From Escherichia coli (GTDB lineage: Bacteria > Pseudomonadota > Gammaproteobacteria > Enterobacterales > Enterobacteriaceae), in NCBI RefSeq assembly GCF_041886205.1, contig NZ_CP169029.1: DNA of 64,000 bases. The stretch is one strand, 5' to 3'. Below the pieces are notes generated by a model, which searched no databases, was not told the DNA's origin, and worked only from the letters and a program-made list of their open reading frames with translations. Positions 6,644 to 43,540 of the stretch are shown one piece after another. The stretch's first letter is position 1; each line of letters begins with the position of its first letter. The position numbers were made by a program, and so were the translations under genes.

Positions 6644-7513
6644 TTATTTCAGAACAGTTTTCAGTGCTTCACCGATATCCGCCAGGCTGCGAACGGTTTT
6701 CACGCCTGCGGCTTCCAGAGCAGCGAATTTCTCATCCGCAGTCCCTTTACCACCGGCAATGATGGCACCCGCGTGGCCCATACGTTTGCCTTTCGGCGCA
6801 GTCACACCAGCGATGTAACCTACAACTGGCTTGGTAACGTGCTCTTTGATGTACGCAGCAGCTTCTTCTTCTGCGCTACCGCCGATCTCACCGATCATCA
6901 CGATCGCTTCGGTCTGCGGATCTTTTTCGAACATTTCGAGGATGTCGATGAAGTTAGCGCCAGGGATCGGGTCACCGCCGATACCGACACAGGTCGACTG
7001 ACCGAAACCGTAATCCGTGGTCTGTTTAACCGCTTCATAGGTCAGTGTACCGGAACGGGAAACGATACCCACTTTACCCGGTTTGTGAATGTGACCCGGC
7101 TGGATACCGATTTTGCATTCACCCGGAGTGATAACGCCCGGGCAGTTCGGGCCGATCATACGAACGCCGGCTTCGTCCAGTTTCACTTTCACAGTCAGCA
7201 TATCCAGCGTCGGGATGCCTTCAGTGATGGTGATAATCAGTTTGATGCCTGCATCAATAGCTTCCAGAATGGAGTCTTTGCAGAACGGTGCTGGTACGTA
7301 GATAACAGAAGCGGTAGCACCAGTAGCAGCAACAGCTTCACGCACGGTGTTGAACACCGGCAGGCCGAGGTGGGTAGTACCGCCTTTACCTGGGGTTACG
7401 CCGCCAACCATTTTAGTGCCGTATGCAATGGCCTGTTCTGAGTGGAAAGTCCCCTGGCTACCGGTAAAGCCCTGGCAGATAACCTTGGTGTTTTTATCAA
7501 TTAAAATGGACAT
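6644..7513 (-). CDS. sucD: Succinyl-CoA synthetase alpha subunit
   Basis: 289-aa [27 protein letters not shown]...; 1-nt overlap with sucC stop. Confidence 0.97.
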
Positions 7514-8679
7514 TATTTCCCCTCCACTGCGGCAACAACCTGCTGAGCTGCATCCGTCAGACCTTTTGCTGCAATAATATTCAGGCCGCTGTCAGCCAGT
7601 TTCTTCGCGCCGAGTTCGGCGTTGTTACCTTCCAGACGTACCACGACCGGTACGTTAACACCCACTTCCGCTACCGCGCCGATGATACCGTCAGCGATCA
7701 GGTCGCAACGAACGATACCGCCGAAGATGTTAACCAGAACGGCTTTCACTTTGTCGTCAGAGAGGATGATTTTGAACGCTTCGGTTACACGTTCTTTGGT
7801 TGCGCCGCCGCCAACGTCCAGGAAGTTAGCCGGTTCGCCGCCGTGCAGTTTAACGATGTCCATCGTACCCATCGCCAGACCTGCGCCGTTAACCATACAA
7901 CCGATGTTACCGTCCAGCGCAACGTAGTTCAGTTCCCACTGTGCAGCCTGTGCTTCACGCGGATCTTCCTGCGACTGGTCACGCATTTCGCGCAGATCAG
8001 GCTGGCGGAACAGTGCGTTGCCATCAGCGCCCAGTTTGCCGTCGAGGCAAATCAGATCGCCCTGTTTGGTGATGACCAGCGGGTTGATTTCGATCAGCGC
8101 CAGGTCGCGCTCCAGGAAAATGGTCGCCAGGCCCATGAAGATTTTGGTGAACTGCTGAACCAGTTTACCTTCCAGACCCAGTTTGAACGCCAGCTCGCGT
8201 CCCTGATACGGCATCGGGCCAGTCAGCGGATCAAGCGCAACTTTGTGGATCAGGTGCGGAGTTTCTTCCGCCACTTTTTCGATTTCCACGCCGCCTTCGG
8301 TGGAGGCCATAAAGACCACGCGACGTGAACTACGGTCTACAACGGCACCGAGATACAGCTCTTTAGCGATATCGGTCGCCGCTTCAACCAGAATCTGGTT
8401 AACCGGTTGGCCATTGGCATCTGTTTGATACGTTACCAGACGTTTGCCCAGCCAGTTTTCTGCAAAAGCACGGATGTCTTCTTTGCTGTTTACAACTTTC
8501 ACACCGCCCGCTTTACCGCGGCCACCAGCGTGAACCTGACATTTCACTACCCACGGACCGGCACCGATTTTTGAAGCGGCTTCTTCTGCTTCGCGCGGAG
8601 TAGTACAGGCATAACCCACCGGTGCTGGTAAGCCATAGCGGGCAAAAAGTTGTTTTGCCTGATATTCATGTAAGTTCAT
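7513..8679 (-). CDS. sucC: Succinyl-CoA synthetase beta subunit
   Basis: 388-aa [21 protein letters not shown]... ATP-grasp. Confidence 0.97.
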
Positions 8680-8761
8680 GTGTTCTGTCCATCCTTCAGT
8701 AATCGTTATCTTTTAAACCGTAGACCGAATATTTCGTATCGCTTCCGGGTATTGTCGGTCA

Positions 8762-8935
8762 CCCGTAGGCCTGATAAGACGCGTTAAGCGTCGCATCAGG
8801 CATCGCTTGTCGGCTGCGGCGCGAGCGCCTTATCCGACCTACATTGGTGCTCCCCGTAGGCCTGATAAGACGCGTAAGCGTCGCATCAGGCTTCAATTGC
8901 CGGAGAAGGCGATAATGCCTTATCCGGTCTATAGT
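8762..8935. repeat. REP/BIME cluster in sucB-sucC intergenic region
   Basis: Multiple copies of the REP palindrome motif (gcctgataagacgcg...cgtcgcatcaggc; gccttatccg.cctac) seen directly. Confidence 0.7.
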
Positions 8936-8954
8936 GCAGGTGAATCTTAAACTA

Positions 8955-10172
8955 CTACACGTCCAGCAGCAGACGCGTCGGATCTTCCAGCAACTCTTTG
9001 ATCGTTACCAGGAAGCCCACGGATTCGCGACCATCGATCAGACGGTGATCGTAGGACAGCGCCAGGTACATCATCGGCAGGATCTCAACCTGACCATTCA
9101 CCGCCATCGGACGATCTTTGATAGCGTGCATACCCAGAATTGCGCTCTGCGGCGGGTTGATGATCGGCGTAGACATCAGGGAACCGAACACACCACCGTT
9201 GGTGATGGTGAAGTTACCACCGGTCAGATCTTCAACCGTCAGCTTGCCGTCACGGCCTTTAACTGCCAGCTCTTTGATTTTCTTCTCGATGTCTGCCATG
9301 CCGAGGGTATCGACATCACGCAGTACCGGCGTCACCAGGCCGCGCGGCGTAGAAACCGCCATGCTGACGTCGAAATAGTTGTGGTAAACCACGTCATCAC
9401 CGTCGATAGAAGCATTCACTTCCGGGTAACGTTTCAGGGCTTCAACCACCGCTTTCACGTAGAAGGACATAAAACCCAGACGGATGCCGTGGCGTTTTTC
9501 AAACGCTTCACCGTACTGCTTACGCAGATCCATAATCGGCTTCATGTTGACTTCGTTGAACGTGGTCAGCATGGCGGTGGAGTTTTTCGCTTCCAGCAGA
9601 CGCTCTGCCACACGCTTACGCAGGCGAGTCATCGGGACACGTTTTTCACTACGTGCAGCCAGAGCCGGTTGCGCCGCCGGAGCAGCCGCTGCCGGAGCAG
9701 ACTCTTTCGCCGGGGCTTTCGCCAGATGTTTTTCCACATCTTCACGAGTCAGACGACCACCCACACCGGTGCCTTTAATGGCGCTGGCGTCGAGATTGTG
9801 TTCAGCCAGCAGGCGACGGATCGCCGGGCTTAACGCATCGTTGTTTTGCTCTTCCAGAGACGCCTGCTGGCGTTGCGCCGGAGTGGACGCTTTCTCTTCA
9901 GATTTGGCGCTGGTTTCTTTACCGGCGCTGTTGCCTTCACGCAGGCGACCAAGGATCTGACGAGACGTTACCGTTGTACCTTCATCTTCCAGAACCGCAT
10001 CCAGAATGCCGTCTGCTGATGCCGGTACTTCCAGTACCACTTTGTCAGTTTCGATTTCTACCAGCACTTCATCACGTACGACTGCGTCGCCGGGTTTTTT
10101 ATGCCAGGTTGCGACGGTGGCATCGGCTACGGATTCAGGCAGGTCAGGGACCAGAATATCTACGCTACTCAT
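8955..10172 (-). CDS. sucB: 2-oxoglutarate dehydrogenase E2 (dihydrolipoyl succinyltransferase)
   Basis: 405-aa ORF with N-terminal lipoyl domain ([11 protein letters not shown]) and Ala/Pro-rich linker. Confidence 0.97.
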
Positions 10173-10186
10173 TGTGTATCCTTTAT

Positions 10187-12988
10187 TTATTCGACGTTCA
10201 GCGCGTCATTAACCAGATCTTGTTGCTGTTTCTGGTGAACGGACATATACCCTACCGCCGGAGAGGCGGAGGCCGGGCGGCCTGCATAACGCAGAGAAGC
10301 CCCAAACGGAATCACTTCACGGAAATGATGCTGGCTGCAGTACCATGCGCCCTGGTTGAGCGGCTCTTCCTGGCACCAGACAAAATCCTTGACGTGAGCA
10401 AACTGCTGCAACACTTCCTGCATCGCTTTATGCGGGAACGGGTAGAGTTGCTCGATACGCACAATGGCGACATCGTGTTGATTGTTCTTACGGCGTTGTT
10501 CCAGCAGGTCGTAATAAACCTTACCAGAACACATCACTACGCGCTTCACGCCCTTCGGATCAAGCTCGTCGATTTCACCGATGGCTGGCAGGAAGGTGCC
10601 GTTCGCCAGTTCTTCGAGGCTGGAAACCGCCAGCGGATGACGCAGCAGGGATTTCGGCGACATCACGACCAGCGGACGACGCATCCCGCGCAGCGCCTGA
10701 CGACGCAGCATGTGGTAAACCTGTGCCGGGGTAGACGGTACGCACACCTGCATGTTTTGCTCAGCACAAAGTTGCAGATAACGTTCCAGACGCGCGGAGG
10801 AGTGCTCCGGCCCCTGCCCTTCGTAACCGTGCGGCAGCAACATCACCAGACCACACATCCGGCCCCATTTCTGTTCGCCAGAGGAGATGAACTGGTCGAT
10901 AACCACCTGCGCACCGTTGGCGAAGTCACCGAACTGAGCTTCCCAGATAGTCAGAGTGCGTGGTTCTGCGGTGGCATAACCGTATTCAAACGCCAGCACT
11001 GCTTCTTCAGACAGTACGGAGTCCCAGACACGGAATGCGCCCTGCCCGTTATGGATATGTTGCAGCGGCGTGTAAGTGGAACCGTTAGACTGGTTGTGGA
11101 TAACCGCGTGGCGGTGGAAGAAGGTACCGCGACCGGAGTCTTCACCCGACAGGCGAACCGGAATGCCTTCGTCAACCAGCGTGGCGTAAGCGAGGTTTTC
11201 CGCGCCGCCCCAGTCGAACAGTTTCTCACCGGCTGCCATTGCCTGGCGATCGCCATAAATCTTGGCAACGCGAGACTGCATTTCAACCGCTTCCGGCACC
11301 GTGCTGATGCGTTTAGCCAGTTCCTGCAGGCGCTTCATCTCAACTTTGTTCGGGTACTCTTCGTCCCATTCGTGGTTGAGGTACGGCGACCAGGTGAAAG
11401 AGTGCATGTTCATCGGACGCCACTCTGCTACCACGCAATCGCCAGCATCCAGCGCATCGCGGTACAGGTTAACCATCTCGGTGGCATCTTCCAGCGTCGC
11501 CACTTTTTCCTGCTCCAGCTTGTCAGCGTAGATTTTGCGCGGTGTCGGATGTTTTTTGATTTTCTGATACATCAGCGGCTGGGTTGCGCTCGGCTCGTCG
11601 GCTTCGTTGTGGCCGTGACGGCGGTAGCACACCAGGTCGATGAAGACATCACGTTTAAAGGTGTTACGGAAATCGAGCGCCAGACGGGTCACAAAGGCAA
11701 CGGCTTCCGGATCATCCGCGTTAACGTGGAAAATCGGTGCCTGAACCATCTTACCGATATCAGTACAGTACGGTGTAGAACGGGCATCCAGCGGGTTAGA
11801 GGTGGTGAAGCCAACCTGATTGTTGATAACGATACGTACCGTACCGCCAACTTCATAACCACGCGCTTTCGACATGTTCAGAGTTTCCTGAACCACGCCC
11901 TGCCCGGTCACTGCGGCGTCACCGTGGATGGTGATTGGCAGCACTTTGTTGCTGCTCGGCTCATCAAGTCTGTCCAGACGGGCACGAACAGAACCGATAA
12001 CGACCGGGCTTACAATCTCAAGGTGAGACGGGTTAAACGCCAGCGCCAGGTGCACCAGGCCGCCATCGGTCTGGAAGTCAGACGAGAAGCCCATATGGTA
12101 TTTCACGTCACCCGTGCCGAGGTGTTCTTTATGTTTACCGGCAAACTCGTCGAACAAGTCTTGCGGTTTTTTACCCAGCACGTTCACCAGCACGTTCAGA
12201 CGACCACGGTGCGCCATCCCGAGAACCACTTCGCGGGTGCCGCTGTTGCCAGCGTGGCGGATCATCTCTTTAAGCATCGGGATTAACGCGTCACCGCCTT
12301 CCAGCGAGAAGCGTTTTGCGCCAGGGAATTTTGCGCCGAGGTAACGTTCAAGGCCTTCAGCGGCGGTCAGTTCGCTTAAGAAGCGTTTTTTCTCTTCGCT
12401 ATTGAAAGTCGCGCGACCAGACTCGATACGCTGTTGGATCCAGCGTTTTTCTTCGGTGCTGGTAATGTGCATATACTCGGCACCAATCGGGCCGCAGTAG
12501 GTTTGCTTGAGGGCTTCCAGCAGCTCGCCGAGTTTCATGGTTTCTTTGCCGCTGGCAAATGAACCGACGTTGAAGGTCTCCTGGAAGTCTGCTTCGGTCA
12601 GATCGTGGAAAGACGGATCCAGATCGGCCACTTTATCTTGCTGCCACAGTCCCAGCGGATCGAGATTCGCATGCTGGTGACCACGGAAGCGGTATGCGTT
12701 AATGAGCTGCAGGACTTTAACCTGCTTCACATTGGTGTCAGGGTCGGAGATCGTTGAAGAGTAACGTGAAGCGTCTTTCGCCAGGCGGCGGAAATATTCA
12801 CGCGTTTGAGAGTGGAATTGATCCGGTTTGACTCCCGTACCAGGTAACTGCTGGAACGTCGAACGCCAGTTAGCGTCAACCGAGTCAGGATCGGTTAAGA
12901 AGTCTTCATAGAGCTGTTCTATCCAGCTCTGGTTTGCGCCAGAGAGGTAAGAAGAGTCCAACCAGGCTTTCAAAGCGCTGTTCTGCAT
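10187..12988 (-). CDS. sucA: 2-oxoglutarate dehydrogenase E1 component
   Basis: 933-aa [33 protein letters not shown]... Confidence 0.97.
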
Positions 12989-32195: not shown

Positions 32196-32701
32196 AAAAC
32201 TCCTGAATGGCGCAAGTTAATCACACGCGGCCAAAGTTCGAAATAACGCTGCCCTGAAAGCCAGGCGTCAGGATAAAGCGCCATATAGTGTTTGATACGC
32301 ATCAGCGGCGCAAGAAGTGGTTGCTCGCCACGGCGATAACTGTCGATAAGCGCAGCCAGCTGCTGGCGTTCTGTGGAATCAATATGCGGGCGAAAATAAC
32401 CCTGAACGTGCATCAAAACGTTGGTGTGGTCACGTCGGTTGGCGGGGTGAGAAAGCAAAACAACTACGCGTTGGCGGTACTGGTTGTAATAGTCATCCAG
32501 ATTTTGCCACTGGTGAATATCAGCCACGAACGGGCCAAGTTTGCGGTACTCCGGCTGAGAATGCGCCAGAAAGACGAGTTTATAGCGGCTGTGATAATCG
32601 AGAAGCGCCCCGCGCGTTAAGCCATGTTCTTTCAGTCGATGTAACTCATGAAGGGCAAAGATACGGATTAGGGTGCTGTCATCAAATCGTTGTAGATTCA
32701 T
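32192..32701 (-). CDS. ybgA: DUF1722-family protein co-transcribed with phr
   Basis: Start placed at MNLQRFDD (169 aa), preceded by an AGGAG Shine-Dalgarno at good spacing; 4-bp overlap with phr start. Confidence 0.85.
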   Translation of the reverse strand: MNLQRFDDSTLIRIFALHELHRLKEHGLTRGALLDYHSRYKLVFLAHSQPEYRKLGPFVADIHQWQNLDDYYNQYRQRVVVLLSHPANRRDHTNVLMHVQGYFRPHIDSTERQQLAALIDSYRRGEQPLLAPLMRIKHYMALYPDAWLSGQRYFELWPRVINLRHSGVL

Positions 32702-32802
32702 TACTGCTCCTGAACGGTTTACAGGAGTAAGTGTAGACGGCGAAAAGAAAAAAACCGCCAGCATCTCCACTAGCGGTTTTCAATGTATTCAAAACTCAGC
32801 AA

Positions 32803-37736: not shown

Positions 37737-40413
37737 CGAACCCTTACGTCCCGACCCCGATCGTCTGCTGGAACAAACTGCCGCGCCGCATCGGGGGAAG
37801 CTGAAAGTTTTCTTCGGTGCCTGTGCAGGCGTCGGGAAGACCTGGGCGATGCTGGCAGAAGCCCAGCGACTGCGGGCGCAAGGGCTGGATATTGTGGTTG
37901 GCGTGGTAGAAACCCATGGGCGGAAAGATACCGCCGCCATGCTTGAAGGGCTGGCTGTTCTGCCGCCCAAACGCCAGGCGTACCGTGGGCGGCATATCAG
38001 CGAGTTTGATCTCGATGCCGCCCTCGCCCGCCGTCCGGCGCTGATCTTAATGGACGAACTGGCGCACAGTAATGCGCCAGGTTCTCGTCATCCTAAACGC
38101 TGGCAGGATATCGAAGAACTGCTGGAAGCTGGCATTGATGTTTTCACAACCGTCAACGTTCAGCATCTGGAAAGTCTGAATGATGTGGTCAGCGGCGTCA
38201 CCGGAATTCAGGTACGGGAAACCGTGCCCGATCCTTTTTTCGATGCCGCCGACGACGTAGTGCTGGTGGACTTGCCCCCGGACGATCTGCGCCAGCGGCT
38301 GAAAGAAGGCAAAGTCTATATTGCCGGGCAGGCGGAGCGCGCCATTGAACATTTTTTCCGCAAAGGCAATCTGATCGCCCTGCGTGAACTGGCACTGCGC
38401 CGTACTGCCGATCGCGTAGATGAGCAAATGCGCGCCTGGCGGGGGCATCCTGGTGAAGAGAAAGTGTGGCACACGCGCGACGCGATCCTTTTATGCATCG
38501 GGCATAACACCGGCAGTGAGAAACTGGTCCGCGCGGCGGCGCGGTTGGCCTCGCGCCTGGGTAGCGTCTGGCACGCGGTGTATGTTGAAACCCCTGCCCT
38601 GCATCGCTTACCGGAAAAAAAACGTCGGGCAATTCTCAGCGCCTTACGTCTGGCGCAGGAGCTGGGCGCGGAGACGGCAACACTTTCTGATCCAGCGGAA
38701 GAGAAAGCGGTAGTCCGTTATGCCCGTGAACATAATCTCGGCAAGATTATTCTCGGTCGCCCAGCCTCGCGCCGCTGGTGGCGTCGGGAAACGTTTGCTG
38801 ACCGACTGGCGCGCATCGCCCCCGATCTCGATCAGGTGCTGGTCGCGCTTGATGAACCACCCGCCCGCACGATTAACAACGCGCCGGATAGCCGCTCTTT
38901 TAAAGACAAGTGGCGGGTACAGATTCAGGGATGCGTGGTTGCCGCCGCGTTATGCGCCGTTATCACCTTAATTGCCATGCAGTGGCTGATGGCGTTTGAT
39001 GCCGCCAACCTGGTGATGCTGTATCTGCTTGGCGTGGTGGTAGTGGCGCTATTTTATGGACGCTGGCCTTCGGTGGTTGCTACCGTCATTAATGTGGTGA
39101 GTTTCGATCTCTTTTTTATCGCCCCACGCGGCACGCTCGCCGTCTCTGATGTGCAATATCTGCTGACCTTCGCGGTGATGTTAACCGTCGGGCTGGTGAT
39201 CGGGAACCTTACTGCTGGCGTGCGTTATCAGGCGCGGGTAGCCCGTTACCGCGAGCAACGCACACGGCACTTATATGAAATGTCGAAAGCTCTGGCGGTG
39301 GGCCGCAGTCCGCAGGACATCGCCGCCACCAGCGAACAATTTATTGCCTCCACGTTTCATGCCCGCAGTCAGGTGTTGTTGCCCGATGACAACGGTAAAT
39401 TGCAGCCGTTAACACATCCGCAAGGAATGACGCCGTGGGACGATGCCATCGCGCAGTGGAGTTTTGATAAAGGCCTGCCTGCGGGTGCGGGCACCGACAC
39501 GTTACCCGGTGTACCGTACCAAATTTTGCCGTTAAAAAGCGGCGAGAAAACCTACGGACTGGTGGTGGTGGAACCGGGGAATCTGCGTCAGTTGATGATC
39601 CCGGAGCAGCAGCGCCTGCTGGAGACGTTTACGCTGTTAGTCGCCAATGCGCTTGAGCGGCTGACGCTGACCGCCAGCGAAGAACAGGCGCGGATGGCAA
39701 GCGAACGTGAACAGATCCGCAACGCCCTGCTGGCGGCGCTTTCGCATGATTTACGCACTCCGCTTACGGTGCTGTTTGGTCAGGCAGAAATCTTAACGCT
39801 CGATCTGGCAAGCGAAGGATCACCCCACGCCCGCCAGGCCAGCGAGATTCGTCAGCATGTGCTGAACACTACCCGACTGGTGAATAATCTACTGGATATG
39901 GCGCGAATTCAGTCCGGCGGCTTTAATTTGAAGAAAGAGTGGTTAACGCTGGAAGAAGTAGTCGGCAGCGCGCTGCAAATGCTGGAACCGGGTTTATCGT
40001 CGCCCATCAATCTTTCTCTGCCAGAACCGCTGACCTTAATCCACGTTGACGGGCCACTCTTTGAACGGGTGCTGATTAATCTGCTGGAGAACGCGGTGAA
40101 ATATGCGGGTGCGCAGGCCGAAATTGGTATCGATGCCCACGTTGAGGGCGAAAATCTACAACTGGATGTCTGGGATAACGGGCCCGGTCTTCCGCCAGGC
40201 CAGGAGCAGACGATATTTGATAAGTTTGCTCGCGGGAATAAAGAGTCGGCAGTACCGGGGGTAGGGCTTGGACTGGCAATTTGTCGGGCGATAGTGGATG
40301 TACACGGGGGCACTATTACCGCGTTCAACCGACCGGAAGGTGGTGCCTGTTTTCGTGTTACACTTCCCCAGCAAACTGCCCCTGAACTTGAAGAATTTCA
40401 TGAGGATATGTGA
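37729..40413 (+). CDS. kdpD: Sensor histidine kinase KdpD
   Basis: 894 aa from [16 protein letters not shown]; N-terminal KdpD domain with Walker A (GACAGVGKT), four TM segments, HisKA (LSHDLRTPL) and HATPase domains. Confidence 0.95.
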
Positions 40414-41087
40414 CAAACGTTCTGATTGTTGAAGATGAACAGGCTATTCGTCGCTTTCTGCGCACGGCGCTGGAGGGCGACGGTATGCGCGTCTTTGAGG
40501 CCGAAACGCTGCAACGCGGCTTGCTGGAAGCGGCAACCCGTAAGCCAGATTTGATTATTCTCGATCTCGGCCTGCCCGATGGTGATGGGATTGAGTTTAT
40601 CCGCGACCTGCGCCAGTGGAGCGCGGTGCCGGTGATAGTGCTTTCCGCACGCAGCGAAGAGAGCGACAAAATCGCCGCGCTGGATGCCGGAGCGGATGAT
40701 TATCTGAGTAAGCCGTTTGGCATTGGCGAATTGCAGGCCCGTCTGCGCGTCGCATTACGCCGCCATTCAGCCACTGCCGCGCCCGATCCGGTAGTGAAAT
40801 TTTCCGATGTTACCGTCGATTTAGCCGCCCGCGTGATTCACCGGGGTGAGGAAGAGGTGCATCTCACCCCGATTGAATTCCGCCTGCTGGCGGTGCTGCT
40901 CAACAATGCCGGAAAAGTGCTCACCCAGCGCCAGCTTCTTAACCAGGTGTGGGGGCCAAACGCGGTCGAACACAGTCATTATTTGCGTATTTATATGGGA
41001 CATCTGCGACAAAAACTGGAACAGGATCCCGCTCGCCCCCGCCATTTCATTACTGAAACCGGTATTGGGTATCGGTTTATGCTTTAG
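40410..41087 (+). CDS. kdpE: OmpR-family response regulator KdpE
   Basis: 225-aa ORF (GTG start) [17 protein letters not shown]...; 4-bp overlap with kdpD. Confidence 0.95.
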   Translation: MTNVLIVEDEQAIRRFLRTALEGDGMRVFEAETLQRGLLEAATRKPDLIILDLGLPDGDGIEFIRDLRQWSAVPVIVLSARSEESDKIAALDAGADDYLSKPFGIGELQARLRVALRRHSATAAPDPVVKFSDVTVDLAARVIHRGEEEVHLTPIEFRLLAVLLNNAGKVLTQRQLLNQVWGPNAVEHSHYLRIYMGHLRQKLEQDPARPRHFITETGIGYRFML

Positions 41088-41099
41088 GCGGTTGAATTA

Positions 41100-41182
41100 C
41101 CGGATGCGGCGTATACGCTTTATATGGCCTACGTAATGCTCCCGTAGGCATGATAAAACGCGCTAGCGTCGCATCAGGCATT
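41100..41182. repeat. REP-like palindromic element(s) between kdpE and ybfP
   Basis: cggatgcggcgtatacgc..., cccgtaggcatgataaaacgcgctagcgtcgcatcaggca seen directly. Confidence 0.55.
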
Positions 41183-41201
41183 GGCACTCATATCGAAATG
41201 T

Positions 41202-41696
41202 TTAATGCGTATTTATCGCTTTCAACTCTTGCTGGCATTTTTCTGACTGACAGCGTCGCAACTCAATAATCCCGACATGCATCATCGAGCCAAAAAATCC
41301 GCTTTCGCTGACATAATCATCATTAACTATCGGTCGAGTGCCGGGCTTACCCTGGCAAATCCTCATAAAAAATGAGGTGTAGCACTGCCAGCCGAGATTT
41401 AAACTGGTCTTTTCTTGTGCTGACATATCGTGAAGATAAGTATGTTCTTTTTCGTTCCCGCCTGACAACTGCCAACGTCGGGTATTATCAGGTAAGTTAT
41501 CGCCAAGGCAATTTGTCTTACACCGGGAAGGCGCAATATTTACTGCAATGCTACCCGTTAATCCTCTGTTTTTATCTTTAGGGGTCAGTAACCAGTCACC
41601 AGCCAATGATGATTGTTCAGGTTGGGCGCATGCAGTCAGCAGTAATGTGGCGGTAATTAGTGACACTCTGACGACCAGACTCCCGTTGGTCTTCAT
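41202..41696 (-). CDS. ybfP: Lipoprotein YbfP
   Basis: 164-aa ORF with lipoprotein signal peptide (…LLLTAC). Confidence 0.8.
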   Translation of the reverse strand: MKTNGSLVVRVSLITATLLLTACAQPEQSSLAGDWLLTPKDKNRGLTGSIAVNIAPSRCKTNCLGDNLPDNTRRWQLSGGNEKEHTYLHDMSAQEKTSLNLGWQCYTSFFMRICQGKPGTRPIVNDDYVSESGFFGSMMHVGIIELRRCQSEKCQQELKAINTH

Positions 41697-41741
41697 TGGG
41701 ATTTCCTTGAGCTATTCAGTTTGTTGACACAGTGTTCGTTG

Positions 41742-41850
41742 TTTTTGCCGGATGCGGCGTGAACGCCTTATCCGGCCTACAAAATCGCGCAAATTCAATA
41801 TATTGCACCATCTTTGTAGGCCTGATAAGCGTAGCGCATCAGGCAGTCAT
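41742..41850. repeat. REP/BIME cluster between pgm and ybfP
   Basis: gccggatgcggcgtgaacgccttatccggcctac ... gtaggcctgataagcgtagcgcatcaggc seen directly. Confidence 0.7.
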
Positions 41851-41899
41851 AAGTAAAAAAGGGCGATCTTCCGACCGCCCTTTTTCTTATTTAATGTGT

Positions 41900-43540
41900 T
41901 TACGCGTTTTTCAGAACTTCGCTAACAATCTCAACCGCTTCTTTCTCGATCTGCTTGCGATGTTCTTCCCCGAGGAAGCTTTCGCAGTAGATCTTATATG
42001 CGTCTTCCGTGCCTGACGGACGCGCGGCGAACCAGCCGTTGTCAGTCATCACTTTCAGGCCGCCGATAGAAGCACCGTTGCCCGGTGCCGCCGTCAGGCG
42101 CGCGGTGATTGGGTCGCCTGCCAGGGTGCTGGCGCTCACCATTTCCGGAGACAGCTTAGACAGCGCCGCTTTTTGTGCGGAAGTCGCAGCTGCCTGCAAA
42201 CGGTTGTAGCTCGGCGCACCAAAGCGTTTTGCCAGTTCGTTGTAGTGTTCCTGCGGGTTCTTACCGGTGACCGCGGTGATTTCCGCCGCCAGCAGACACA
42301 TAATGATGCCGTCTTTATCGGTGGACCACGGCGTGCCGTCGAAACGCAGGAAGGAAGCCCCTGCGCTCTCTTCGCCGCCAAAGCCGAAGCTACCGTCGAA
42401 CAGACCATCAACAAACCATTTGAAACCTACCGGTACTTCTACCAGCTTACGGCCCAAGTCATTGACCACACGGTCGATCATCGCAGAAGAAACCAGCGTT
42501 TTACCGACGGCAACATCTTTGCCCCACTGCGGACGATGCTGGAACAGGTAATTGATCGCCACCGCCAGGTAGTGGTTCGGATTCATCAAACCTGCCGGAG
42601 TGACGATACCGTGACGGTCATAATCCGGGTCGTTAGCAAACGCCAGATCGAACTTATCACGCAGTGCCAGCAGGCCCGCCATCGCACACTCGGAGGAGCA
42701 GTCCATACGGATCGCGCCGTCTTTATCAAGGTGCATAAAGCGGAAGGTTTGATCGACCTGATCGTTAACGATAGTCAGGTTGAGGTTGTAATACTCGCCA
42801 ATACGCTTCCAGTATTCGATACCGGAACCGCCCAGCGGATCAACGCCAAGCGTCAGGCCCGCTTTCTGAATCGCCGCCATATCAACGATATCGGCCAGCC
42901 CTTCCACGAACGGCTGCACCAGATCCTGCTCTTTCACATGACCGGATGCCATCGCTTCGTCGAGAGAGATACGCTTCACGCCTTTCAGGCCATCGGCCAG
43001 CAGTGCGTTGGCCCTGTCTTCCACCACTTTGGTGACGTTGGTATCAGCCGGGCCACCATTTGGCGGGTTGTACTTGATACCACCATCTTCCGGCGGGTTA
43101 TGGGACGGTGTAATCACGATACCGTCTGCCAGCGGGCCACCTTTTTTATTGTGAACCAGGATGGCATTGGAAACGGCAGGCGTCGGGGTGAAGCCATTGT
43201 TTTCCTGCACAATGACATCAACGCCGTTCGCTGCCAGCACTTCCAGTACGGAAATGAACGCAGGCTCGGACAGGGCGTGAGTATCTTTACCCACATAGCA
43301 AGGGCCAGTGATGCCGTTTTTCGCACGTTCTTCAGCAATTGCCTGAGCGATCGCCAGAATGTGCGGCTCGTTAAAGCTGTGGCGCGCTGCACTGCCACGG
43401 TGACCGGAAGTACCGAATTTCACCGCATGCTCCGCATTCCCTGCTTCTGGTTTCAGTACATAATATTGCGCCGTCAGTTGGGCGACGTTAATCAAATCAC
43501 TCTGTTGTGCAGGTTGGCCTGCACGATTGTGGATTGCCAT
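41900..43540 (-). CDS. pgm: Phosphoglucomutase
   Basis: 546 aa from [22 protein letters not shown]; active-site region [15 protein letters not shown]. Confidence 0.95.

Follow-up and report, generated by a model that had tools for sequence, protein, structure and literature searches.

The interval between kdpE and pgm in the 64,000-nucleotide stretch of an Escherichia coli chromosome analysed here (the window) is very probably a natural minor allele of that locus, referred to below as Type II, sub-allele IIa, which lacks the speFL-speF-potE operon and carries a BIME, ybfP, a second BIME, and a shared terminator before pgm. Neither the locus nor any other part of the window contains the operon. 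The 115 bp spacer that lies between kdpE and ybfP has no counterpart in K-12, and for this reason Type II is not to be read as a K-12 layout that has recently suffered a deletion.

Along this part of the window, kdpB, kdpC, kdpD, and kdpE lie on the + strand and are followed by ybfP, pgm, and seqA on the - strand and then by ybfF, ybfE, fldA, and fur on the + strand, and the region is 100% identical to the complete genome of E. coli LHM10-1 (pig, China). The last gene of kdpFABCDE, kdpE, is named as such in the LHM10-1 annotation and encodes a protein with 99% amino acid identity to K-12 KdpE. The interval and its anchors contain the following features:

40410-41087, + strand: kdpE, intact, 225 aa, TAG stop codon at 41085-41087 (from the list of open reading frames); left anchor of the polymorphic interval
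41088-41201: the kdpE-ybfP gap, 114 bp, a degenerate BIME
41099-41132, + strand: Y-type REP, left copy, degenerate, 28/34 to the consensus (6 mismatches)
41144-41179, - strand: Z2-type REP, inverted, 32/36 to the consensus (4 mismatches)
41133-41780: the ybfP block, 648 bp, made up of the remainder of the spacer, ybfP, the ybfP 5' flank, and the right Y REP
41202-41696, - strand: ybfP, an intact gene for a 164 aa lipoprotein, convergent with kdpE
41747-41844: BIME-1-type element between ybfP and pgm (Y REP 41747-41780, linker 41781-41815, inverted Z1 REP 41816-41844)
41854-41886: hairpin resembling a terminator, with runs of A and of T (aaaaaagggcgatcttccgaccgcccttttt), immediately downstream of pgm, as read from the sequence
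41900-43540, - strand: pgm, right anchor of the interval

The hairpin at 41854-41886 is the right boundary common to all four alleles of the interval described below, being present also after potE in strain EDL933 and beside pgm in the Type 0 allele. A simple terminator scan flagged neither this pgm terminator nor the BIME in the kdpE-ybfP gap.

In K-12 MG1655, the kdpE-ybfP interval (b0689-b0694) holds speFL, speF, potE, and the pseudogenes ybfI and ybfG, in agreement with the initial annotation of this DNA, which had placed speF-potE and pseudogene remnants in this position. BLASTN homology between the two sequences breaks at window 41085 (K-12 721058) and at window 41201 (K-12 715907), one breakpoint falling at the stop codon of kdpE and the other a single base beyond that of ybfP, and 5,150 bp of K-12 (ybfG, ybfI, potE, speF, and speFL) correspond to approximately 115 bp in the window. 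There is no TBLASTN match anywhere in the 64 kb window to K-12 SpeF (732 aa), PotE (439 aa), SpeFL, or YbfG. When the missing K-12 segment is compared with the window by BLASTN, the sole match is to kdpE itself, by way of the ybfI relic, and no DUF2625 sequence is found. These comparisons bear out the suggestion that speF-potE is missing here: the operon occupies this very spot in K-12, where the 115 bp junction is not found. The counts across the genome collection, given below, suggest that speF is absent from the rest of this strain's genome as well.

The flanking genes, their order, and their orientation (kdpD-kdpE ... ybfP-pgm-seqA) are shared by the K-12 layout and the window, the flanks being approximately 98-98.5% identical, and K-12 too has this BIME-1, and the terminator, between ybfP and pgm. 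The K-12 layout differs in the kdpE stop codon, which is TGA in K-12 and TAG in the window, in its ybfP, which has 93.7% DNA identity to that of the window, and in the presence of ybfI, a relic of the 3' end of kdpE, and ybfG, a DUF2625 pseudogene, neither of which is found in the window. There is a second difference in gene content between K-12 and the window, away from this locus. In the window, ybfA is followed directly by ybgA-phrB-dtpD (approximately 32700-32800, from the LHM10-1 annotation), K-12 homology ends at window 32749, and the RhsC region of K-12 (rhsC, ybfB, ybfO, ybfC, ybfQ, ybfL and others, from K-12 729,583) is absent.

REP sequences were sought by a Hamming scan with Y, Z1, and Z2 consensus sequences, the validity of which is borne out by other copies in the window that depart from them at just 0-2 positions. 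The gap, which had been described as some 115 bp of REP-like palindromes, is indeed composed in this way, its 114 bp holding a Y REP on the + strand and an inverted Z2 REP that are 11 bp apart, an opposite orientation with a short linker that makes this a mosaic element. Together the two fold into one long hairpin, with a predicted free energy of -44.6 kcal/mol on the + strand (z -1.7) and -41.1 kcal/mol on the - strand (z -2.8). The element is extragenic, sitting between the stop codons of the convergent genes kdpE and ybfP, and it belongs to a dispersed multi-copy family, with more than 15 REP matches in the 64 kb window and 197,706 matches in 5,425 genomes to a 240 bp query that contains a BIME. 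By its agreement with the Y and Z consensus, its mosaic pairing, its extragenic position at 3' ends, and its copy number, the gap is a REP/BIME element. The Rfam family naRNA4, which is REP-derived, matches at 41147-41227 with 32.5 bits, below its gathering score. The BIME in the gap would most likely do no more than form a hairpin at the 3' ends of the convergent kdp and ybfP transcripts.

The Y and Z1 REPs of the BIME between ybfP and pgm have zero mismatches to the consensus. The Rfam family ES036 (CssrF) matches at 41781-41823 with 40.3 bits, against a gathering score of 37.6; this match is probably repeat-derived and not a specific sRNA gene, because the Rfam family appears to be modelled on the BIME-1 linker. 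The place occupied by this BIME is a recurrent insertion site across strains. Insertion sequences are found in it in LD67-1 (IS1397, locus L091, 7667-9015) and in 2020N21-246 (IS200C, locus L090, 7560-8018), and in one other assembly an island bearing integrase and AlpA genes follows ybfP (locus L095, approximately 7300-12650).

Across 5,426 complete E. coli genomes, four alleles of the kdpE-pgm interval were recognized:

Type I: kdpE-speFL-speF-potE-terminator-pgm, without ybfP; example EDL933; approximately 3,260 genomes (about 60%), by subtraction from the total
Type III: Type I with ybfI-ybfG-ybfP before pgm; example K-12; 1,764 genomes with the full-length arrangement, approximately 1,856 with partial copies included (about 33%)
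Type II: kdpE-BIME-ybfP-BIME-pgm; example this window; 253 genomes in which kdpE and ybfP are contiguous (about 4.7%)
Type 0: kdpE-BIME-pgm; examples XH990, TB06051, and O169:H41 F6326-C1; roughly 50-70 genomes (about 1%)

For Type 0, the count is what remains when the 253 Type II genomes are taken from the 305-323 that have kdpE joined to pgm. The count for Type II agrees with a subtraction from the 2,112 genomes with ybfP, approximately 1,856 of which are K-12-type. Of the genomes surveyed, 5,046 have a speF of at least 90% identity and 380 do not. The presence/absence survey that had been called for, run here over the collection as a whole, finds the operon-less alleles to be a minority. 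Approximately 55 of the genomes without speF are neither Type 0 nor Type II, and further rearrangements of the kdpE-pgm locus exist besides the four types.

Type II itself comes in two forms. In IIa, 10 genomes (LHM10-1, VE-T9, XJ5.2, CP52E, ET201, 6EVA, wlxctx60, PT62, MB53, and LP5-1) are 99.9-100% identical to the window across the junction, while IIb, of which UPEC69 is an example, is approximately 93% identical across it in 50 others among the matches listed, or approximately 243 genomes by subtraction. UPEC69 has the same kdpE-ybfP junction as the window, with its REPs better preserved. The carriers of the junction come from pig, cattle, human, frog, bear, and pigeon hosts in differing countries. 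In genome H30, the kdpE-ybfP query matched over the ybfP part only.

Type I, as seen in EDL933 (O157:H7) and E. albertii, has the same kdpE and pgm anchors as the window and the same pgm-proximal terminator. Indeed, the last 144 bp of kdpE in EDL933 differs from that of the window at just 2 positions, whereas between the anchors EDL933 has the operon, no ybfP, and no BIME, and the window has ybfP, two BIMEs, and no operon. When Type I is compared with Type II, the operon and ybfP are therefore mutually exclusive occupants of the interval. Type 0 is like the window in having no speFL-speF-potE and in its TAG stop codon, left flank and Y REP, BIME-1, and terminator, and differs from it in lacking the 648 bp ybfP block. 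This allele is also present, without the operon, in a cryptic-clade 'E. coli' (strain SCPM-O-B-8794; locus L005). No description of a kdpE-pgm polymorphism was found in the literature searched; ybfP has been reported as enriched in phylogroup A (bioRxiv 10.1101/096479).

The two Y REPs that bracket ybfP in the window are direct repeats, with 80% identity over 41 nt between 41097-41137 and 41745-41785 and a spacing of 648. The spacer of Type 0 joins the left flank and left Y REP of Type II to the part of the right BIME that comprises linker, Z1 REP, and terminator, and in XH990 it keeps the variants of the left copy that are seen in UPEC69 (gcggcg, ccgacctac). An in silico recombinant between the two Y REPs of UPEC69 (IIb), in which 647 bp is deleted, is identical to the XH990 spacer at 157 of 163 positions, and the same construct made from the window gives an 83-89% match to Type 0 spacers. 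Type 0 is equivalent to a Type II allele in which the direct Y REPs on either side of ybfP have recombined, and the REPs therefore mark the ybfP indel and not the loss of the operon. The Type 0 left flanks come in two forms, one like that of the window (gcggtt.aat) and one like that of UPEC69 (ggNctgaatt), which suggests that the ybfP-block event, or its reverse, has occurred more than once. Two O169:H41 strains, one of Type II and one of Type 0, were considered as a near-isogenic pair for timing the deletion of ybfP and rejected, since their kdpE genes are just 94.7% identical and they are of different lineages at this locus.

There are no REPs at the edges of the operon downstream of kdpE or of potE in EDL933, and in K-12 there are none by kdpE and half a REP by ybfI. 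The remark that REPs often mark insertion or deletion junctions is therefore upheld for the 648 bp ybfP block, which differs between Type II and Type 0, and is not demonstrable for speF-potE.

YbfP has an N-terminus, MKTNGSLVVRVSLITATLLLTAC, which in the translation reads as a signal peptide ending in the lipobox LLTAC with the lipobox cysteine. It has no Pfam domain match, and essentially no homologues of it were found outside E. coli. The protein encoded in the window has 92% amino acid identity to the K-12 and UPEC69 alleles, while at the DNA level ybfP is 93.3-94.5% identical to the IIb and K-12-type alleles, with dS of 0.15-0.17 and dN/dS of approximately 0.2. Alleles at least 99% identical to that of the window are present in just 10 of the 5,426 genomes, which are the IIa set; every other ybfP is 90-95% identical, and the window allele was found in no K-12-type genome. 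In one E. coli assembly (locus L085, 8001-8474) YbfP has only 63% amino acid identity to that of the window, yet the kdpE-ybfP junction is the same. On these comparisons, ybfP is an orphan lipoprotein gene with unusually deep allelic divergence that is still under purifying selection. That the same junction is found on deeply diverged alleles, including the one beside the 63% identical YbfP, argues that the Type II architecture is old and has been inherited or exchanged as a block.

Divergence peaks on either side of the junction, in keeping with this reading. Identity between the window and K-12 falls from a background of 98.5% to 93.8-96.6% at 41.0-42.5 kb, and identity to EDL933 falls from approximately 99% to 96-97% within approximately 0.5-0.75 kb of the junction on both sides, the 750 bp at the 3' end of pgm being 96.8-97.2% identical and sequence further away approximately 99%. 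Between the allele classes, the dS of ybfP is 0.15-0.19. The kdpE gene is unusually diverse in E. coli, with 93.7-97.5% DNA identity between strains and dS of up to 0.20, and in the same strains pgm is 97-99.6% identical.

The K-12 layout has features of more than one allele. Between potE and ybfG, K-12 has ybfI, a 142 bp copy of the 3' end of kdpE (K-12 716723-716864; locus L001, 5724-5865), which is 88-90% identical to E. coli kdpE alleles, with pS of 0.26-0.33 and pN of 0.047, meaning that it diverged largely while still constrained. That identity holds for every E. coli allele, which gives no discrimination as to the nearest kdpE. The relic implies that kdpE once lay directly beside ybfG-ybfP, and since ybfI is such a relic the K-12 layout may be a composite of operon-bearing and ybfP-bearing alleles, a reading that explains the layout in part. 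The kdpE-ybfG-ybfP parent predicted by a composite origin was not found, every DUF2625 context examined being K-12-type, and the DUF2625 homologues outside E. coli are approximately 50-56% identical, so that no donor is named. Beside potE, K-12 also carries the pgm terminator and the ybfP 5' flank a second time, in diverged form.

The 5' part of the K-12 operon is divergent as well. Relative to EDL933 (locus L001, approximately 8400-10400), K-12 is 93% identical at the kdpE 3' end, 65% in the kdpE-speFL spacer, approximately 80% in speFL and the speF leader, and 93-94% in the 5' part of speF, and is 98-100% identical on either side of this diverged stretch (kdpD on one side, the 3' half of speF and potE on the other). 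Over the part of this stretch that begins with the kdpE-speFL spacer and ends with the speF leader, EDL933 and E. albertii resemble each other more closely than either resembles K-12. Identity of speF to the K-12 allele is bimodal across the 5,426 genomes surveyed, with 1,412 at 99% or more and 3,095 at 90-95%. The best match to K-12 speF is just 60-80% identical in 81 genomes.

Whether the operon was lost from, or never gained by, the ancestors of Type II was approached through 80 KdpE-anchored loci from other species. The kdpE-pgm synteny is conserved across the Enterobacterales in these loci. The operon occupies the interval in E. albertii, S. enterica arizonae, Citrobacter sp. FP75, and most Enterobacter, Kluyvera and relatives, and kdpE adjoins pgm without it in many Citrobacter and in Kosakonia, Buttiauxella, Serratia, Pantoea, Dickeya, and Erwinia. 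Since it is the more distant Enterobacterales that have kdpE-pgm without the operon, at a level deeper than Escherichia the operon is an insertion. Within Escherichia, the presence of the operon with the same boundaries in E. albertii, Salmonella, and some Citrobacter suggests, from these few close outgroups, that Type I is ancestral. The operon would then have been lost once or a few times, long ago, the BIME now occupying the scar, and the operon-less allele may have been passed on since then as one block, through homologous recombination within the flanking genes kdpE and pgm, which would explain the peak of divergence beside the junction. K-12 would have arisen as a composite of both occupants, with the 142 bp kdpE 3' copy ybfI as the scar. 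No intermediate or scar of the original loss of the operon was found. In Pseudocitrobacter faecalis (locus L018, 3251-5404) and Enterobacter sp. kpr-6 (locus L036, 10943-13096), a SpeF-like decarboxylase with 81-82% amino acid identity is located between kdpE and pgm, and no speFL or potE was detected in the kdpE-pgm loci of these two.

An ancient loss can be set against the opposite polarity, in which kdpE-(BIME)-(ybfP)-pgm is ancestral in Escherichia and the operon was inserted, or re-imported from other enteric bacteria. This would fit the abutment of kdpE and pgm in many Enterobacterales, Citrobacter among them, and the cryptic Escherichia clade without the operon; it would fit also with the appearance of the 5' part of the K-12 operon, which at 62-82% identity to EDL933 and E. 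albertii from the kdpE-speFL spacer through the speF leader looks imported, and with ybfI, which places the 3' end of kdpE at one time beside ybfG-ybfP with no operon between. It is nevertheless unlikely, as approximately 93% of E. coli, together with E. albertii, Salmonella, Citrobacter sp. FP75, and most Enterobacter and Kluyvera, share both the position of the operon and the potE-terminator-pgm junction. The outgroups without the operon, moreover, have as spacers simple terminators that are unrelated to the BIME spacer of E. coli and hence not the same allele, and an ancestral operon-less allele shared with these outgroups was ruled out for this reason.

A recent, single-step loss of the 5.15 kb segment from a K-12-type chromosome in this lineage, perhaps through REP recombination, would fit with flanks that align cleanly to K-12 on both sides, with the REPs in the gap, and with the deletion by one REP against another that does occur here for the ybfP block. 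It is very unlikely, however, given that K-12 has neither REPs at the edges of the missing segment nor the 115 bp spacer, that a ybfP at least 99% identical to that of the window is confined to 10 operon-less genomes and stands at approximately 94% to all of the K-12-type alleles, and that the junction is found also on a 93% identical allele in approximately 240 genomes and beside the 63% identical YbfP. REPs, being multi-copy, can break or mis-join assemblies, and a collapsed or mis-joined contig at this position would produce an apparent absence of the operon; with the identical junction in 10 independent complete genomes and a homologous junction in approximately 240 more, the chance that the arrangement is an assembly or sequencing artefact is negligible.

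A broader proposal is that kdpE-pgm is an old multi-allelic polymorphism, in which the operon and the fast-diverging ybfP are alternative occupants, K-12 is a recombinant with both, ybfI is a relic of a kdpE that once abutted ybfG-ybfP, and the deep linked divergence (kdpE dS up to 0.20, ybfP dS 0.15-0.19) comes from long-term maintenance of alleles, through balancing selection or repeated introgression, and not from neutral turnover. Taken as a whole, this is a tentative and somewhat doubtful extension of the identification of the window as a natural minor Type II allele.

SpeF is the acid- and ornithine-inducible ornithine decarboxylase, PotE is the putrescine-ornithine antiporter, and SpeFL is an ornithine-sensing leader peptide. 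From these established roles, the strain is expected to be without acid- and ornithine-inducible ornithine decarboxylase and without putrescine-ornithine antiport, a prediction that covers the inducible system, the biosynthetic speC being outside the 64 kb window. The alleles without the operon provide a genetic basis for strains expected to lack the inducible enzyme, approximately 7% of complete E. coli genomes being without a speF match. E. coli is scored as variable for ornithine decarboxylase in diagnostic tables, and the polymorphism bears on this variable reaction and on ornithine-dependent acid and polyamine physiology. Nor is the K-12 layout the norm for the species, about 60% of genomes being without ybfP, so that it can be misleading to describe other strains as "deletions relative to K-12". 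Lineages can be tracked simply by means of the four alleles, which are also a clean natural case of deletion by one REP against another. The importance of these observations is modest, and no new kind of system is shown.

REP/BIME elements were reportedly described by Gilson, Bachellier, Hofnung and colleagues, and the gap resembles the enterobacterial elements known under that name in its Y and Z palindromes in a mosaic, its extragenic position at convergent 3' ends, and its multiple copies. Recombination between REPs is said to have been found in Salmonella duplications by Shyamala et al. in 1990. The locus is like such known REP rearrangements in that direct copies bracket a segment that is present or absent among strains, and in that the neighbouring BIME has taken IS1397 in another strain, and differs from them in that the REPs here are not demonstrable as the cause of the operon loss itself. 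Strain-variable decarboxylase systems offer a further comparison; cadA, for example, has been lost in Shigella. The likeness here is that an inducible decarboxylase/antiporter pair is missing in a subset of strains, and the difference is that the loss of the operon is without sign of being adaptive; carriers of the allele come from mixed hosts. All of the parts are of known kinds (kdpE, ybfP, REP/BIME elements, and presence or absence of genes between core-gene flanks) and the junction is already in hundreds of public annotated genomes; Type II is ordinary strain-to-strain variation in gene content and not a new system.
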